Origin: Escherichia coli | Lineage (GTDB): Bacteria > Pseudomonadota > Gammaproteobacteria > Enterobacterales > Enterobacteriaceae | Length of the DNA: 64,000 nt | NCBI RefSeq assembly: GCF_041248615.1 | Contig: NZ_CP158426.1 | Reading direction: 5' to 3' (one strand) | Shown here: positions 1 through 24,647 of the stretch, in pieces | Layout: every line of letters begins with the position of its first letter | Position numbering within the stretch: the first letter of the stretch is position 1 | Program-made: the position numbers and the translations under genes | Notes under the pieces: generated by a model | Told to the model about the DNA's origin: nothing | Databases searched by the model: none | Seen by the model: only the letters and a program-made list of their open reading frames with translations

Positions 1-780
1 ACCAGCACCTACATCCCGCACCCGCTGCTCAGCCAGCAGGCTTTTTCACGTTTTGTGCAGGACTATCTGGTATTTGGTAACGCCTACCTGGAGAAACGCA
101 CGAACCGCTTCGGTGAAATTATCGCCCTTGAACCGGCCCTGGCAAAATACACCCGACGCGGGTTAGACCTGGATAACTACTGGTTTGTGCAATACGGCAT
201 GACCACGCAGCCGTATCAGTTCACGAAAGGCAGTATCTTTCATCTGATGGAACCGGACATCAACCAGGAGATCTACGGCCTGCCCGGTTATCTTTCTGCC
301 ATTCCATCCGCCCTGCTCAACGAGTCCGCCACGCTGTTCCGTCGAAAGTATTACATTAACGGCAGTCATGCAGGCTTCATCATGTACATGACCGATGCCG
401 CGCAGAACCAGGAGGATGTGAACAACCTCCGCAATGCGATGAAAAGCGCCAAAGGCCCTGGCAACTTCCGCAACCTGTTTATGTACTCGCCTAACGGCAA
501 AAAGGACGGGCTTCAGATCATCCCGTTGTCAGAAGTCGCGGCGAAGGATGAGTTTCTGAATATCAAGAACGTGAGCCGGGATGACATGATGGCTGCGCAT
601 CGTGTGCCGCCACAAATGATGGGGATAATGCCAAATAATGTCGGGGGATTTGGGGATGTGGAGAAGGCTGCTAATGTGTTTGTTCGAAACGAGTTGCTAC
701 CTTTACAAAAAAGGATAGAGGAGGTCAATGATTGGCTAGGTGAAGATTTAATTACATTCAATTCATATTGCTTTGATTAA
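1..780 (+). CDS. Phage portal protein (P2 Q / 186 W-like), C-terminal part; 5' end lies left of the window
   Basis: Frame 1 is open from base 1 to the stop at 778-780 (track ORF 55-780 starts at an internal GTG). Gene points toward the cos-like sequence at 2045-2063, as the portal gene does in P2-family genomes. Product call is from position and recalled family resemblance. Confidence 0.5.
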   Translation, partial: TSTYIPHPLLSQQAFSRFVQDYLVFGNAYLEKRTNRFGEIIALEPALAKYTRRGLDLDNYWFVQYGMTTQPYQFTKGSIFHLMEPDINQEIYGLPGYLSAIPSALLNESATLFRRKYYINGSHAGFIMYMTDAAQNQEDVNNLRNAMKSAKGPGNFRNLFMYSPNGKKDGLQIIPLSEVAAKDEFLNIKNVSRDDMMAAHRVPPQMMGIMPNNVGGFGDVEKAANVFVRNELLPLQKRIEEVNDWLGEDLITFNSYCFD

Positions 781-832: not shown

Positions 833-1984
833 TTATTCAACTTCATCGTAATAAATCTCCCATTGATCATTCATACCAACAACCTGCTTTTCCTCGTAAA
901 TATACTGAACCTTGTCAATTTCTATTACTTTTGATGAACCATCTATAAATTCCATACATGAAGGATTAAAAACAACCAAGTTCTTACCTTTACCAACTGT
1001 ACTTGAAAATTGTATACCATCATACCCCTCTTTCCTTATACAATCAGATATTAGTTGGGACACACTATATCTTCCTTCTAAGGAAGGTGGAGTTGCAGTA
1101 TTAAAAATACCTGCCATCTTTGCATATGGTATCATGGATAATAAACTTTCATCACTCTCAATAAACTCTAAAAAATTAGGATAAGAAAAATCGAATACCT
1201 TTAATGCTTTTGCAACTCTAAATTTACCAATTGAAACAACATCTGTTGGATGAGGTCGAACTTCCGCAATTGCAGTATAACTATCTGTAGCACAATAAAG
1301 GTAAGAAACGCCTGCTCTATTAGCCCTGCCAGCAGTAGCCTTTAGTGGTGGCACGGCTCCTATTTCCTTATCTTTAAATGGAACAAATATTTTCTTTCCT
1401 TCACGGCTAAATCCCCTAAGTGCTGTTTTATAGCCAGCAGTCCCAACTCTGGCTCTATATACCACAGAACTTCCTTCTATTATCTTCGAAAAAATATCAC
1501 CATAACCTTTTATAATACTTCTTAGCTCACCTTCAAAATCATGGTAATTCTTTTCTGAAAGCTGTTTTGACAAAGAATCTAAAAATGGCTGATGTGCATT
1601 TCTGATAGACATATATGGCGTATTATATAGACCATCAGATCCATAGCCTGCATAAATATTTATTCCCTCACTATCAAATGCCATATCCCACAATTCGCTA
1701 TCGAGTTCCCCAAAAGATTCATCATGCTCCTGTATATCCTTGGTGAAAATAAAATCATCTTCCAATAGAAAACTCGGGTAATACTCCCCTCCAAAATGAG
1801 TATTGTAATCGACTTCATCATAATGATATCTCAGAATAGCTTTCAACAAATTACGTACTTCTGAAGAATCAGTATCTAAACAAACAGTATCTGCACAACA
1901 AAAAGCACAAATACCTCGTATATTTTGCGAAAAAATTAGTTTTTTTATATTTGATTCAACAATGTGACTTTCGCAGATATACAT
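833..1984 (-). CDS. RES-domain protein with Cys/His-rich N-terminal domain (putative NAD+-targeting toxin / abortive-infection effector); AT-rich cargo gene
   Basis: C-terminal half carries the RES signature: VYRAR, AGRANRAGVSYLYCATDSYTAIAEVRPH (R..N..G...LY.A.......E) and DGIQFSSTVGKGKNLVVFNP (conserved Ser, N.vvF). N-terminus has C-x20-C-x2-CC-x4-C. AGGAG sits 6 nt upstream of the second ATG (1984). Markedly AT-rich versus flanking phage genes. Confidence 0.6.
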   Translation of the reverse strand: MYICESHIVESNIKKLIFSQNIRGICAFCCADTVCLDTDSSEVRNLLKAILRYHYDEVDYNTHFGGEYYPSFLLEDDFIFTKDIQEHDESFGELDSELWDMAFDSEGINIYAGYGSDGLYNTPYMSIRNAHQPFLDSLSKQLSEKNYHDFEGELRSIIKGYGDIFSKIIEGSSVVYRARVGTAGYKTALRGFSREGKKIFVPFKDKEIGAVPPLKATAGRANRAGVSYLYCATDSYTAIAEVRPHPTDVVSIGKFRVAKALKVFDFSYPNFLEFIESDESLLSMIPYAKMAGIFNTATPPSLEGRYSVSQLISDCIRKEGYDGIQFSSTVGKGKNLVVFNPSCMEFIDGSSKVIEIDKVQYIYEEKQVVGMNDQWEIYYDEVE

Positions 1985-2044
1985 CATAATCTCCTTGAAT
2001 TTTACCTTACATGCTCATTATTGCCACTTTAGCTTGCGCGCGCA

Positions 2045-2063
2045 ATCGTATCCCCGCCACGCC
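2045..2063 (-). other. cos-like cohesive-end sequence of P2/186 type (bottom strand GGCGTGGCGGGGATACGAT)
   Basis: Bottom strand matches the recalled 19-nt 186 cohesive end GGCGTGGCGGGGAAAGCAT at 15/19 positions (first 13 contiguous). Lies in a GC-rich non-coding block with a perfect 12-bp palindrome TTGCGCGCGCAA at 2034-2045. Located between the early-region end and the portal gene, where cos is expected. Confidence 0.5.
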
Positions 2064-2349
2064 TGCCCGCTTTATGTAGCGGTTTTCATGCAGGTGCATG
2101 ATCTACGCAAAATCCCACCAGTTCTGGCGGGCCTTAGCAAAAACGATCCGCAAACGATCATGCGATCTCATGCGGCATAGTCATGCACTTACGGGGGAAC
2201 TGAAATCCAGTAACCGAATGATCGCTTGAAAAACGAAACATACGTACTTACAAAGCACAAAGCCTGCTTTGAGCGAAGCGGACATTAATAATGTTGCTGA
2301 CCATCCCTAGTACTTCTCATAATATATCCGTATGTTAATCAACAAAATA

Positions 2350-4242
2350 TTAATTTGTCCCATCACTAAAGAATTTGATTGCGTCAGTTAGTACATAGTC
2401 AATGAAAAATTTTACGTGAAAGACCTGAAAAACGCTATTTTCTGAGTTTTTAATGAAATCTACAGCTATATCTTTTAGGTTGATCAACCAGTTATATTCT
2501 TCAATCAGTCTAGTTCTGGCATCCGCATCAGAATAACGACTCCGTAAGCTAAATGCCAGTTTCCTCATGATAACTGGATCAAGTTTCCTATAGCTTTCAA
2601 TGAAAACATCAGCAGGAACTAAGTGTAAAAAAGGTACATCATGAAGATTTAACTGTCTATTATTAGAATGACTCAATTCAGATAACAACGATAATTTTCC
2701 CCTTTGTAACTCATCTCTGAACTGCAATGCAAATTCCGAAATTGAATCATCAAACCGTTTCTTCCTTTCTATTTTAATATGTTCAATAATGAGCTTAAAG
2801 TCATCACTATCCCTGTCAAGAAAACCTAAACCACGCCATGCCCTTAATTCGTTATAATGTGTTTGCGCATATTCCTTATGTACATCTTCAGCTCTAAGTC
2901 TATTATAATAATTATTTATATTCTGTTTTGTCTCATTTATGAGATCATGAACATCATCTGTTGTTAGACCTTCTTTCGCCATTTCCAGCAAAATACTCGC
3001 TGTCATCAGAAGTTCACCTAAGGAAGTGATCTTACCTGAAAACAGGTTATCCTTAGCAATAGCGTACTGCTCATAAAGCATAGTTTCATTTAGTTCTCTA
3101 TAGTTCCACAAATACTCCCATGCTTGGGAATCGCTGCTTCTAAAAAATCGCGTAATATCCAACTGAGCAAGAAGATCACCCGTTACCTTTCCATCACAGA
3201 TTAGTTCTCTCCAAGACGCACCATCCAGTAACTTCTCGGTTAATACAGGAGACGAATATTTCTCGACAATCATGTCATACTTACTTTTGACACGTTCTTT
3301 ACCCAAAAACATACCATAATTAACATTGCCGATTGAATTGAAATCCTCGTAACTAAGATTCCCTCCCCGGTACTCCATCGAAAAAATTAACAATTGATGA
3401 AAAAACACCCTTATAAATTCATCGTTACTTACATATTTATCTCCCAAAAGGGAAATAATTCGTTGTACATCGAGAAAGAACTGCCTCAAGTGTCTTAGAT
3501 TATTATAATTCGCTGACACATAGAGGTCCTCTATTGTCTGCATATCTTCTTTAAATATATTAGCAACATGCAAACTACTAATTACGTTCAAAAAAATCTT
3601 ACAAGCACTATGTAAATCTGACGTTACTTCAAATGTTTTACCTACTAGCTTTTCTTTTGTTCTCATGTATTCATTGCGAGATTTCTCATCATCATTATTT
3701 ATTCGCTTTTCTCTATTGATTATTTCATCTTCATTGGCAACCAAGATCGCTTTGTATCCGTTTACCTCTACAAAGTGATTTATATATCCAAATAAGATTG
3801 GTAAATCTACACCAGCTCTCTCGACATCATCAAAGACCAGCACAAAACCATCTGGTTTTCTAGTAAAGTCGCTAAGATTAATGGTGGGAACATTGCTATT
3901 GACATCTACGTCAGATTTATTATCGCCATTAAGATCGATCTTGAAAGTAGCCTTAAGCGTATTTTTTAGTACATTTGCACCAAAGATAAGGGCTTTGTTT
4001 GATAGGACAGGATGCAGTTGACGATAGAACTCATCTTCAATCTGCTCAATAGAGTTGACGCCATACAAGCTCACTTTTAGAAATTTGAACTCTGAATGTT
4101 TCTGCCTATATTCTTCAAGAACTCGTTCAATGAACCAAGTTTTACCTGATCCCCAAGCACCTTTAAGCATAATGGCGTATTGAGGTTCAGTTTTAAGGCT
4201 AAGGTAATATTCTAGATAGTCTTTGATGTACGTATTGTGCAT
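2350..4242 (-). CDS. KAP-family P-loop NTPase (candidate anti-phage defence cargo in the tin/old-equivalent hotspot)
   Basis: Walker A GAWGSGKT in the KAP-type GxWGxGK[ST] context and Walker B-like hhhhDDVER (VLVFDDVER); about 630 aa. AT-rich. Start taken at the MHNTY Met (4242); the track ORF extends to 4293 with no RBS. Confidence 0.65.
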   Translation of the reverse strand: MHNTYIKDYLEYYLSLKTEPQYAIMLKGAWGSGKTWFIERVLEEYRQKHSEFKFLKVSLYGVNSIEQIEDEFYRQLHPVLSNKALIFGANVLKNTLKATFKIDLNGDNKSDVDVNSNVPTINLSDFTRKPDGFVLVFDDVERAGVDLPILFGYINHFVEVNGYKAILVANEDEIINREKRINNDDEKSRNEYMRTKEKLVGKTFEVTSDLHSACKIFLNVISSLHVANIFKEDMQTIEDLYVSANYNNLRHLRQFFLDVQRIISLLGDKYVSNDEFIRVFFHQLLIFSMEYRGGNLSYEDFNSIGNVNYGMFLGKERVKSKYDMIVEKYSSPVLTEKLLDGASWRELICDGKVTGDLLAQLDITRFFRSSDSQAWEYLWNYRELNETMLYEQYAIAKDNLFSGKITSLGELLMTASILLEMAKEGLTTDDVHDLINETKQNINNYYNRLRAEDVHKEYAQTHYNELRAWRGLGFLDRDSDDFKLIIEHIKIERKKRFDDSISEFALQFRDELQRGKLSLLSELSHSNNRQLNLHDVPFLHLVPADVFIESYRKLDPVIMRKLAFSLRSRYSDADARTRLIEEYNWLINLKDIAVDFIKNSENSVFQVFHVKFFIDYVLTDAIKFFSDGTN

Positions 4243-4563
4243 TTTTAGTCCATTTTGATAAAATACATAAACATAGATGGTAAGTAGAGCCAAAGGCCAA
4301 CTATGGAAAACTCAATCGGTAGTGTACATTGTAAGGTTATTATTGGTAAATATTATAGGAATACCCATAATCTAACAAAATTCAGATTATCCGTTGCAAA
4401 TTAGTCTGCCATTCGCTAATTGACGAAAGATAGCACAAGAAACGTTCGCTTCTGGCACAAAGCGGACGATCACTTATAAAAATGACCGCCCACCTTACGC
4501 CTTATTTCACTCGTTGCCCAAACTAGCCCCCATTAGAATGAATCCTCCTAGGGGCAACGTTTC

Positions 4564-4797
4564 TTAATGCAGCCAGCTGTCATCTTCCCACACTTTCTGC
4601 ATAATTTTCATTACTTGTTTTCTTTCTTCGTCCAGTTGCAGTCCGGTTAGTTCCACACCGTTAGAGCTACCTTTGCGGATACGAATTACCGTTTTGGAAT
4701 ACAGGGGGCGCAGATTGCGGTAAAGCTCGGATTCAAGGGCGTCCAGGGTAGACTGGCTAATCTTCTGCTCTTTATCGATCATTATTTCAATGCGCAT
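4564..4797 (-). CDS. DinI-family protein (resembles E. coli DinI and the DinI-like domain of phage 186 Tum)
   Basis: MRIEIMIDKEQ...LDALESEL...IRIRKG...LTGLQLDEERKQVMKIMQKVWEDDSW aligns by eye with DinI (MRIEV.IAK...IDAL..EL......V.VR...LSV.G...E...I.EILQETWE.ADDW). GAGGTG RBS 7 nt upstream of ATG at 4797; track ORF 4564-4869 is an upstream extension. Confidence 0.6.
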   Translation of the reverse strand: MRIEIMIDKEQKISQSTLDALESELYRNLRPLYSKTVIRIRKGSSNGVELTGLQLDEERKQVMKIMQKVWEDDSWLH

Positions 4798-4807
4798 AAA
4801 AGTCACC

Positions 4808-4996
4808 TCAGCTGATGACATCCATTGAGCGGTTGTATTCGTGGCTTCTGATTTTTGCCATGAGTTCATCAGTCAATTCAGAAACCCACTGCAGAGCCAG
4901 CCCCTTCTCTTCATCACTACACTCACTAGCCGCTACAAGCTTAAGAAAAAAATCAATGCGCTGGAGCTTCAAAGACTCCAAAAAATAGTCCTGCAT
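4808..4996 (-). CDS. Small phage protein of unknown function, first gene of a two-gene unit with the DinI-like gene
   Basis: 62-codon ORF with AGGAGG RBS 5 nt upstream of ATG; its stop lies 10 nt before the DinI-like start. Confidence 0.45.
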   Translation of the reverse strand: MQDYFLESLKLQRIDFFLKLVAASECSDEEKGLALQWVSELTDELMAKIRSHEYNRSMDVIS

Positions 4997-5149: not shown

Positions 5150-7564
5150 TTAATACAGGTTCCGCCACTGATCATCTTCCTGCAAACGTTGGTTCCGATA
5201 GAAGATACGCAGGCCTGCTCCTGACGGAATACTGCCGCCACGAAGGAGTAAATAGACCTCTTTCTCGCTGCCATCAAATCCTCTGGACTTCAGTTCATAG
5301 ACAAGCTGCTGTCGCTGATGGTCTGTAATTCGCTGTTTGTAGTCTTTACGCCGTTTCGGTTTCACCAGGCGTAACCTTGCAGCCAGTTCCCGGCGCTCTT
5401 TTTTGCTCATACTGTGCAGGTATTCGTGCAACTCCTTGTCATCCATGCGGGTGATATCCGTTCTGGTATCTCCATCAGCTGATTTGTCTTTCCCTTGTTG
5501 GTACAAATTTTCAGCAAGGGGACAGTTATTGCCACGAGTCCAAGGGGCGCAAGCGCCCTGGTCGGCTGCCGCCTCCTGAACGTCAACGGCCTTACGAACC
5601 ATTTTCCACTTCACTGCATGAGTGCAGATCTTGCCCTCTGCAATGGGTGACCAGATGCCATAAATACGAATGCCGTGATCGCCATAGGCGGTCGGCTCTT
5701 CGTTAATTTCATAAGCAGTTCTGATGAGGTGATATTTGCGGGGAACCAGTACGCCGCCCTGCTTCATGATGTAAGTGGCAAAACAACCAGCATCAGCAGC
5801 AGCCAGGATTGCATCAAGGCGCGGGTTATCCAGTACCGGCGCACCTGCTTTTTTGTCCCCCTGTTGCCTTGCCGCCTGACCAGCCAGCAATCGCAGTTCA
5901 CGGTAAGCCTGACGCCCCGGAATGCCAAAGAAGCGGAATTGCTGAACACGATGCAGAGACGCCCAGGCATTAACGTATTCAGCGTTATCACGCAGGGATT
6001 TACCCGTTTCCTTGCTGATCTCGCCAGCCAGACCACGCCCGTCAATGTTCTTACTGATGTATTTCGCGATGTAGCTTGTTGGCGTACCTTTGCGCGGGTT
6101 TATCAGCTCAGACTTAAAGCGTGGTCCCGTGTTATTCCCCAGCTCCTCGCGGTCTTCACGAATGGCAAACTTACGCAATAAAGCAGTAATGGCGCGGCGA
6201 TCTTTTTTGCGCATAAAACACAACAGGTGCCAGTGAACTGTACCGTCATGATGCGGCTCAGCCACCCGCACGCCATACCACCGCAATCCGGCTTTGTGCA
6301 TCGCCTTACGAAATGCAGCAAACATGCCGACCAGATAATCACTGCTTTGTTTTACCGTCGCATTTGTCCAGGTTGGGTTGGGCCTGCCGTTATTTAGCGT
6401 GGAATGGAAACGTGACGGACAGGTGATGGTGTAGAAAACGGCGCAGTCACCGCGCATTTCCGCGATAAGCTCCAGACCTTTAACACAGGCCATCATCTCA
6501 TTGCGGCGATGCGCAGGGTTGCTGCTGCTGGCGTTTACCACATCCTCCATGTCCAGCGTGTCGCCGTCTTCGTTCACCAGTTCATGAGAACGGAAAAACT
6601 CCAGCGACTTACGGCGCTGCTCACGTTTATGCATCACGGCTTCATAGCTGACATAGGGGGATGCTTTTTTGCTAACCAGGCAGACAGCGCGCAACTGCTC
6701 TTCCCGCCATTCGCAACGCATCTTCCATAATTTCCGATACCACCAGTCGGCGCACAACATACGCGCCAGCGAACCCGGAATGAGTTCATAGGGCACGGGT
6801 TTACGGCGGTTTCTTTTCCGGCGGAGTTGCTCAAACGCAGGTGGGATGACATCCAGACGCAGGGTTTCCGCCGCCACCCTTTCCCATGTCTTGCGGATTT
6901 CTTCTGGCTTAACGTCATCGGTGGCATACAAATCGCCACAAGCTGCATCAAGGCACATGCTCATATGCGCAGCAACAAGGGTGGACAGGCGTTTCACCTG
7001 ATCCTGACTCATTTCAGGCAGAATCAGCAGGCCGTCCAGCCCTTCATGGCTTGCCATAAAGCGAAAAGAAGTGGATAGCTGACTGTCGCGTACATGCTCC
7101 AGCCGTTCCAGACATGGCTTAATCGTCTCACGCAAATAGCGGGAATAAGCCTTTGGCCTGCCAAGGCTACTGAAGTATTCAATACGTTGCATCAGCGGCT
7201 TGCTGATATGGGAGGGCTGGGCGCTGACGTCTGCCAGAATGACCATGTCCGGGTTAAAACGCTGCTGCTCATGCGCCAACTTTGCCCGGCTAATGAGCTT
7301 ATCCTGCTCCATTTCGCGCTGGACAGGATCACGGGATTCATTAAAGAAATAACGCTCCCAGACCTGATCACTCAGTGCCTCGCGGCGCAGTTGTTCCTGC
7401 TCGTTATCGGCAGCGTACAGAGTGATCAGGTTTGAAAGCGCAGAAACCGGCGCAACTTCCGCCGGGTCCAGATAAGGGTTAATAGCCTTTTTCGGGCTGT
7501 TCCATGAGAATGCTGCGGCGGCCTCGTTAAAGCCGCTGCAGTTGTTCATATCAGCATGGCTCAT
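5150..7564 (-). CDS. Phage replication initiation endonuclease (P2 gpA / 186 A family, rolling-circle)
   Basis: 804-aa ORF; size, early-operon position and C-terminal region resemble P2-family A proteins. Start overlaps the Dam stop by 4 nt. Confidence 0.8.
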
Positions 7565-23926: not shown

Positions 23927-23941
23927 CACAAGGATGGATGT

Positions 23942-24328
23942 ATGGGTGTGTATAAGGCAAGACGATTCAGCCAAAGCACGAAAAAACTTGGTATTCACGA
24001 TAAAGTTCTCATGGCTGCCGCTGAAGAAGTGATGCAGGGCATATGGGAGGCTGATTTAGGTAGCGGTGTCATCAAAAAACGTTTACCCCTCCAACAAGGA
24101 AAGAGTGGTGGAGCCAGAACAATTATCTTTTTTAAATCAGCAAATCATGTGTTTTTTTATGATGGTTGGTCCAAGAGTGGTCTAAGCAGTAAAGGAACCA
24201 AAGAAATCGAAGATGATGAACTGGCGGCCTACAAAAAAATGGCAAATGCATTTCTGGCCTTTAGCAATAAGCAAATAGAGGATTTGATCGAAACTGGCTT
24301 TTTGATTGAGGTGAAAAATGAGCGATAA
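23942..24328 (+). CDS. HigB2-like (Gp49/RelE-superfamily) toxin of a type II toxin-antitoxin pair
   Basis: GSGVIKKRLPLQQGKSGGARTIIFF resembles the recalled HigB-2 core (GTGGLRKIR...GKRGGSRIIYYF); toxin-first order with an 11-nt overlap into an HTH gene; absent from this position in K-12 as recalled. Confidence 0.55.
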   Translation: MGVYKARRFSQSTKKLGIHDKVLMAAAEEVMQGIWEADLGSGVIKKRLPLQQGKSGGARTIIFFKSANHVFFYDGWSKSGLSSKGTKEIEDDELAAYKKMANAFLAFSNKQIEDLIETGFLIEVKNER

Positions 24329-24647
24329 ATTACAAATGATGCTGGAAGATGCAAAGGAACTGAATGCACTGGGCCTGATGTCTGATAGTGAAGTTGATGC
24401 CATTGCCGTCATGGTCAAAGCTCGTGAAGTCAGCGCCCGTATAGCCAAAGTCAAATCAATGACGGGTGAAGAGATCAAAGCCATCCGCACCCGATACGGC
24501 ATGTCACAATCCGTGCTGGCACATACAATGGGAATGTCAAAAGAAAGTGTCTCGAAATGGGAACGTAATGAAATAAAACCGAGCGGCCCGGCATTACGTA
24601 TTTTGAATACATTGGCAATAAAAGGGCCGGAAGTTTTTGCAAAGTAA
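24318..24647 (+). CDS. HigA-like XRE-family HTH antitoxin
   Basis: C-terminal helix-turn-helix (GMSQSVLAHTMGMSKESVSKWE); overlaps the toxin gene. Confidence 0.6.
   Translation: MSDKLQMMLEDAKELNALGLMSDSEVDAIAVMVKAREVSARIAKVKSMTGEEIKAIRTRYGMSQSVLAHTMGMSKESVSKWERNEIKPSGPALRILNTLAIKGPEVFAK

Follow-up and report, generated by a model that had tools for sequence, protein, structure and literature searches.

A divergent aRES-family protein as candidate anti-phage cargo of a P2-like prophage in Escherichia coli

What is the role of an AT-rich gene that lies between the portal gene and the cos site of an E. coli prophage, and to which protein family does its product belong? We addressed this question for a 64,000-nucleotide stretch of E. 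coli DNA (contig NZ_CP158426.1 of assembly GCF_041248615.1), called the window below. The gene order in its first part is terminase, portal gene gpQ, RES gene, cos block, P-loop NTPase, DinI-like ORF and replication endonuclease gpA, followed further on by cI and an integrase, and the element carrying the RES gene is a P2-like prophage. Past ~12.4 kb the window is ordinary E. coli chromosome, the first genes of which are rcdA and ybjJ; a RelE/ParE-family toxin and HTH pair annotated there by RefSeq (~23941-24646, plus strand, between rimO and dgcI) is unrelated to the RES gene. An earlier note on this DNA had placed the gene between a cos-like site and the portal gene and described it as AT-rich, and both observations hold: gpQ ends at 780, the cos block occupies 2035-2200, and the GC content is 0.32-0.37 along the RES ORF versus ~0.53 in the flanking phage genes gpQ and gpA. 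The gpQ and RES genes are convergent. Judging from homology and genomic context, we consider it quite probable that the product of the RES gene is an aRES-type effector that works without a partner and protects against phages by abortive infection, and that the P2-like prophage carries the gene as cargo of its defence hotspot. The coordinates of the locus are collected in Table 1.

Table 1. Features of the RES gene, its predicted product and its surroundings in the window
Feature	Coordinates	Strand	Description
Portal gene gpQ, 3' part	55..780	+	TIGR01540 E 9e-94, RefSeq annotation; left boundary of the slot
RES ORF	833..1987	-	complete, 384 aa with stop; identical to RefSeq WP_077758113 'RES family NAD+ phosphorylase'
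C-terminal tail	836..946	-	residues 348-384; poorly conserved, shorter than in the tested aRES proteins
RES catalytic domain (predicted)	947..1471	-	residues 173-347; key residues R178, R180, R221, Y231, E242, S329
N-terminal regulatory module (predicted)	1472..1987	-	residues 1-172; zinc ribbon and divergent alpha-helical HEPN/RES-NTD1 domain (PF18870)
Zinc ribbon (predicted)	1874..1981	-	residues ~3-38; ligands C5, H8 (Cys in most homologues), C27, C30
Cassette-specific upstream DNA	1988..2034	-	Shine-Dalgarno AAGGAG at 1991-1996, weak promoter-like hexamers
P2-type cos block	2035..2200	.	conserved and non-coding; cassette boundary, outside the RES gene

The assignment of the catalytic half is straightforward at the level of the domain. 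Both of the peptide strings from which a RES domain had originally been recognized are present in the minus-strand ORF at 833-1987, and the Pfam RES model (PF08808) matches residues 213-347 with an E-value of 4.5e-18. A database search returned 123 relatives, among which 50 full-length proteins (26-80% identity) from Enterobacterales (E. coli, Yersinia, Proteus), Bacteroidota (Flavobacterium, Pedobacter, Chryseobacterium) and metagenomes align end to end. The RES protein family is large: a profile search against 1.84 billion representative proteins retrieved 7,769 relatives at E<=1e-3 and 887 at E<=1e-30. Positions invariant over the 50 aligned homologues include R178, R180 and G182 of a YRARxG motif, R221, N223, R224 and Y231 of a GRxNRxGxSxxY motif, E242 and R244 of an AEVRPHP motif, as well as P301, Q311, S329 and N336, and, in the N-terminal part, C5, C27, C30, R53, E58, Y61, G66 and N147. 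The best structural matches are the NAD+ phosphorylases/NADases MbcT and NatT, followed at a greater distance by the catalytic domains of diphtheria toxin and PARP, and Foldseek agrees with this result. None of the solved RES toxins was matched by sequence search, and the link to them needed Pfam together with structure comparison. No family in PADLOC, NCBIfam or PHROGs matches the RES protein; PADLOC-DB 2.0.0 dates from 2023 and thus predates the description of aRES.

The N-terminal half begins with a cluster of cysteines, for which the earlier note had given a first spacing of x20 and no known function. The cluster is present, with the spacing C5-x21-C27-x2-C30-C31-x4-C36. In the alignment of 50 homologues its conservation extends to C5, C27 and C30 and to position 8, where the enterobacterial alleles have His and most other homologues have Cys, and not to C31 and C36. 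The metal site is therefore CxxH/C...CxxC, a predicted four-ligand zinc ribbon, modelled by AF2 with three short strands (E3-5, E23-26 and E33-38). A ribbon of this kind in front of a known domain family also replaces the label of unknown function, since the HEPN/RES-NTD1 domain was defined computationally by Anantharaman et al. in 2013 (PMC3710099), and the domain order ZnR, HEPN/RES-NTD1 and RES described there (PMC3710099; Pfam PF18870) is the order in the window protein. That work was purely computational and the RES domain was guessed to be an RNase; on computational grounds, then, this architecture has been recognized for more than ten years. In the window protein PF18870 goes undetected by plain Pfam hmmscan, which finds it in one of the 50 homologues (E 0.07), and several distant homologues carry it. 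When the profile of residues 1-200 was compared with the N-termini of PF18870-bearing homologues, the two aligned over the full length with an hhalign probability of 99.1% (E 1e-18). By this profile comparison, the window protein belongs to a divergent branch of the NTD1 family. The N-terminal module has no solved structural relative, and this domain is neither Xre-like nor MbcA-like.

The same combination of domains defines the aRES proteins, reported in January 2026 by Osterman et al. (bioRxiv 10.64898/2026.01.28.702374) as stand-alone proteins of 300-600 aa with PF08808 and PF18870 that occur in ~4% of genomes, often in defence islands. Three of them, from E. coli UC5, K. pneumoniae and E. 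chengduensis, were tested in that study; in E. coli they confer resistance to several phages, accompanied by growth arrest, and they are stand-alone and non-toxic before infection. In infected aRES cells NAD+ is converted to nicotinamide and ADPR-1''-phosphate, which phage NARP1 recycles only with an extra Macro-domain phosphatase, and the aRES active site is blocked by small aRad1 proteins (bioRxiv 10.64898/2026.01.28.702374). Defence is lost in the UC5 mutants R182A, R184A, R215A, Y225A, E236A and S334A (bioRxiv 10.64898/2026.01.28.702374 supplement).

The window protein contains PF08808, has a length of 384 aa (383 from the second ATG) and lacks a conserved operonic partner, as expected for aRES. 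For PF18870, the aRES study relied on an hhsearch probability of >80% against Pfam; here the domain was assigned by proxy, through hhalign comparison with the PF18870-bearing N-termini described above and with the UC5 aRES itself. In the latter comparison, columns 10-356 of the family profile aligned to residues 4-357 of UC5 aRES (hhalign probability 99.7%, E 5.8e-26), so that the alignment starts at the zinc ribbon, includes the N-terminal domain and extends through the end of the RES domain; BLASTP gives 31% identity across the RES core (E 2e-12). The UC5 residues R182, R184, R215, Y225, E236 and S334 correspond to R178, R180, R221, Y231, E242 and S329 of the window protein, all of which are invariant in the 50 homologues. 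On all defining features open to in silico analysis, the window protein qualifies as aRES, as a divergent member from a shorter subclade.

Likeness and difference can be stated feature by feature. In common with aRES, the protein stands alone, has an N-terminal zinc ribbon of the CxxC...CxxC type and a PF18870-type domain followed by RES, carries all six residues required for defence and is found in a defence-island or hotspot context. Its overall identity to the tested aRES proteins, in contrast, is ~23% (31% in the RES core), and it is shorter, with 384 residues versus >399, and differs in its C-terminal tail. Plain hmmscan misses PF18870 in the window protein, and the second ligand of the zinc ribbon is His in the enterobacterial alleles, whereas the validated aRES have CxxC. 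Finally, the window gene is located on a P2-like prophage, a context that the aRES preprint does not mention. The alignment with UC5 aRES and the six shared residues give homology support to the functional idea of the earlier note, namely a single-protein NAD+-depleting effector with an N-terminal regulatory or sensor domain.

Among the other activities described for this fold, the protein could be a RES-type ADP-ribosyltransferase that modifies a macromolecule, in the way ParT modifies Prs, without bulk depletion of NAD+; such an activity would still serve defence or exclusion. We regard it as unlikely. The best structural matches are NAD+ phosphorylases/NADases, and both the full-length homology and the six functional residues are shared with aRES proteins that produce ADPR-1''-phosphate, while a match to ParT at the sequence level is lacking. 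ParT, moreover, is paired with the antitoxin ParS, whereas no partner or target is indicated for the window protein.

The characterized RES proteins are toxins of toxin-antitoxin systems, and one can propose that the gene is such an addiction toxin that stabilizes the prophage, its antitoxin being a small RNA or peptide encoded in 1988-2349 or elsewhere. With the RES-Xre toxins (MbcT/MbcA, P. putida Res/Xre, NatT/NatR and VPA0770) the window protein shares the RES toxin fold; it differs from them by the absence of an antitoxin gene, by its additional N-terminal module of 172 aa and by the lack of a sequence-level match to the solved RES toxins. The earlier note had seen no Xre-type antitoxin next to the gene, and indeed neither an Xre gene nor any other small conserved ORF is present on either side. 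It had also suggested that a small antitoxin RNA or peptide be sought in 1985-2349, where Rfam yields nothing credible and only fragments of a frame in the cos block are found. The 361-bp upstream interval 1988-2349 consists mostly of this block. In an alignment, the block corresponds to a site at the left end of phage Cartapus annotated as 'putative cos site, homologous to the cos of P2 phage', and wherever else it was found in P2-like loci its identity is 85-95%, regardless of cargo.

One apparent argument for an antitoxin is a 54-aa ORF annotated directly upstream of the RES gene in one related genome ('hypothetical protein' WP_164965840, K56-43). This ORF, however, is a translation of the cos block, and P2-like prophages without the RES gene have the block as well. 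The frame (window 2007-2171, minus strand; 7308-7472 in locus L002) is sometimes annotated as a gene. In the window it is broken into pieces of 22 and 30 aa, and the 62-residue N-terminal extension of a 446-aa 'RES' protein (P0005) is likewise cos-block translation, so both the 54-aa ORF and this extension look like annotation artefacts and not genes. With Rfam empty in the upstream interval, no neighbour conserved over seven contexts, and the tested aRES being stand-alone and non-toxic until infection (bioRxiv 10.64898/2026.01.28.702374), we consider a toxin-antitoxin role of the gene to be quite unlikely. Control of the window protein is presumably intramolecular or exerted by a phage trigger, and not by a labile antitoxin.

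Two terminator-like hairpins are located inside the cos block, at 2067-2082 on the plus strand and at 2131-2114 on the minus strand, and the region has 4 terminator-like sites versus ~1 in shuffled sequences. The minus-strand hairpin could end the transcription of the NTPase before it reaches cos; the two hairpins may equally be structural elements of cos.

The RES ORF opens with two ATG codons, located 6 nt (second) and 3 nt (first) from the Shine-Dalgarno sequence. The true start is probably the second ATG at nt 1984, giving a product of 383 aa, because its Shine-Dalgarno spacing is better and it is the start of the cluster representative P0001 and of most homologues. The ~47 bp upstream (1988-2034) are shared only with other RES-bearing prophages. 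A scan of the upstream region revealed no convincing promoter for the RES gene; a promoter-like site is present at 2027..1999, and the promoter role of 1988..2034 is a putative one.

The RES region is 100% identical in the chromosome of E. coli KE47 and in one other complete genome, and the identical protein WP_077758113 was found on 185 contigs. Compared with the allele of 19KM2415N (82% DNA identity), the gene has a dN/dS of 0.13. The two halves of the protein behave differently in this respect: dN/dS against a diverged allele is 0.06 for the RES part and 0.23 for the N-terminal part, and identity to the closest diverged allele is 90% and 62-70%, respectively. Thus, the N-terminal part evolves faster than the catalytic part, by these sequence comparisons. 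The gene is intact, real and under purifying selection. That it is an inert or decaying passenger without current function, as its rarity (5 of 5,426 complete E. coli genomes at this locus) and its AT-rich foreign DNA might suggest, is highly improbable given the intact ORF, the unchanged protein sequence in genomes that differ at synonymous sites (dS 0.013, dN 0), dN/dS values of 0.13 and 0.23 against diverged alleles, the invariant catalytic residues and the 887 representative clusters found at E<=1e-30.

The position of the gene had been called unusual for cargo, a view that does not survive comparison with published phage genomics. The gpA-cos-gpQ region is the P2 defence hotspot described by Rousset et al. 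2022 (PMC9122126), with old, tin, DprA-PRTase and TIR systems among its cargo. By the criterion that defines the hotspot, the window locus belongs to it, as a variable gene lies there between gpA and gpQ, beside cos, in a P2-like element. WP_077758113 itself appears in the hotspot tables as 'RES', for example in the arrangement 'DinI + KAP_NTPase + RES' (PMC9122126 supplement); no mention of RES was found in the main text, and there is no sign of it among the arrangements tested in that work (PMC9122126). The RES gene resembles the cargo described there in its locus, its AT-richness, its orientation opposite to gpQ and its swappability, and it differs from the systems validated in that study by its predicted effector chemistry.

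Within the hotspot, the gpQ-cos interval is itself a regular place of insertion. We queried E. coli genomes with the 3' end of gpQ fused directly to the cos block, and only 37 of the 1,288 matching genomes have the gpQ end and cos within ~770 bp. Cargo was present in this interval in all four sampled E. coli P2-like prophages (4/4), in the form of a STAS-like gene between two hypothetical genes, DprA, a P-loop NTPase, and a MAE_28990 HEPN gene with DUF262. The interval is also occupied in the phages Cartapus (DUF4145) and 813R9 (Ymh). In E. coli HE302 (L022 4881-6819) the cargo consists of a MAE_28990/MAE_18760 HEPN nuclease and a DUF262 protein, and in E. coli 2015C-3905 (L019 4963-6841) of a three-gene set with a STAS-like protein. 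An NTD1 sensor common to the RES protein and its slot-mates was considered and rejected, as hhalign gave a probability of <1% for both the HE302 MAE_28990 HEPN protein and Ymh of 813R9.

The left boundary of the exchanged segment can also be approximated. Near the end of gpQ (~690-780), nucleotide similarity between P2-like prophages decays across the last 40-90 nt, and GC content falls from ~600 on. The last 15-20 codons of gpQ differ with the downstream cargo. The divergence of the gpQ 3' end places the recombination boundary of the cassette, as it seems, inside this end of the gene.

Homologues of the RES gene occupy diverse contexts. An allele with 55% identity sits in the same gpQ-cos slot of another E. 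coli prophage. The Yersinia homologue lies beside an integrase at the edge of a P2-like prophage and the Proteus homologue downstream of ogr in a P2-like prophage. Another homologue adjoins BREX genes, and the one from Flavobacterium is located in an island with NERD, Shedu, OLD-TOPRIM, AbiEii, Mrr and DUF4238 genes. Over seven different contexts no partner gene is conserved. The neighbour across cos varies by carrier and is a PDC-S49 NTPase, a KAP NTPase or a hypothetical protein.

In the window this neighbour is a 647-aa P-loop (KAP-like) NTPase (2350-4293, minus strand) that matches PADLOC PDC-S49 (E 3e-156) and phrog_4740 (unknown function). Many E. coli genomes without the RES gene have a ~90% identical copy of the cos-proximal end of this NTPase gene beside cos, and the NTPase therefore seems to be an independent single-gene candidate defence system. 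A two-gene system of RES and the P-loop/KAP NTPase was rejected, given the NTPase end in RES-less genomes, the three different RES neighbours and the homologues without an NTPase elsewhere. A possible parallel to the PDC-S49 NTPase is the KAP-type 'Reve' system (bioRxiv 10.64898/2026.02.27.708500). Further towards gpA, a DinI-like ORF (4564-4869, minus strand) matches NCBIfam NF007893 with E 1.9e-9, which is below the cut-off. This ORF and a 62-aa ORF recur beside gpA in several of the P2-like prophages examined, with any cargo, and the two seem to be semi-conserved residents of the gpA side of the hotspot.

For a stand-alone aRES-type effector carried in this slot, the following mechanism can be proposed. 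The lysogen would make the RES protein constitutively and hold it in an inactive state. Infection by another phage would then be sensed, most likely through the fast-evolving zinc-ribbon/HEPN-RES-NTD1 module, presumed to be a sensor or autoinhibitor. Once active, the RES domain would phosphorolyse NAD+ to nicotinamide and ADP-ribose-1''-phosphate, the reaction for which experimental data exist in three distant homologues. By analogy with these proteins, depletion of NAD+ would stop growth and abort the infection, and the clonal population of lysogens and the prophage would be protected.

The family, the chemistry and the hotspot have all been described previously, and no new category is involved. 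What is new is the occurrence of a divergent aRES member (~23% identity), as assigned by homology, in the standard P2 cargo slot. P2-like temperate phages would thus mobilize aRES-type defence by NAD+ phosphorolysis through their main cargo slot, which connects a newly described defence family with phages well studied as vehicles of defence exchange in E. coli. Finally, the locus provides a natural series of short alleles with 100%, 80%, 74% and 55% identity, several of them confirmed in the same slot, which could help to define the signal recognized by the N-terminal domain, the main question about aRES.
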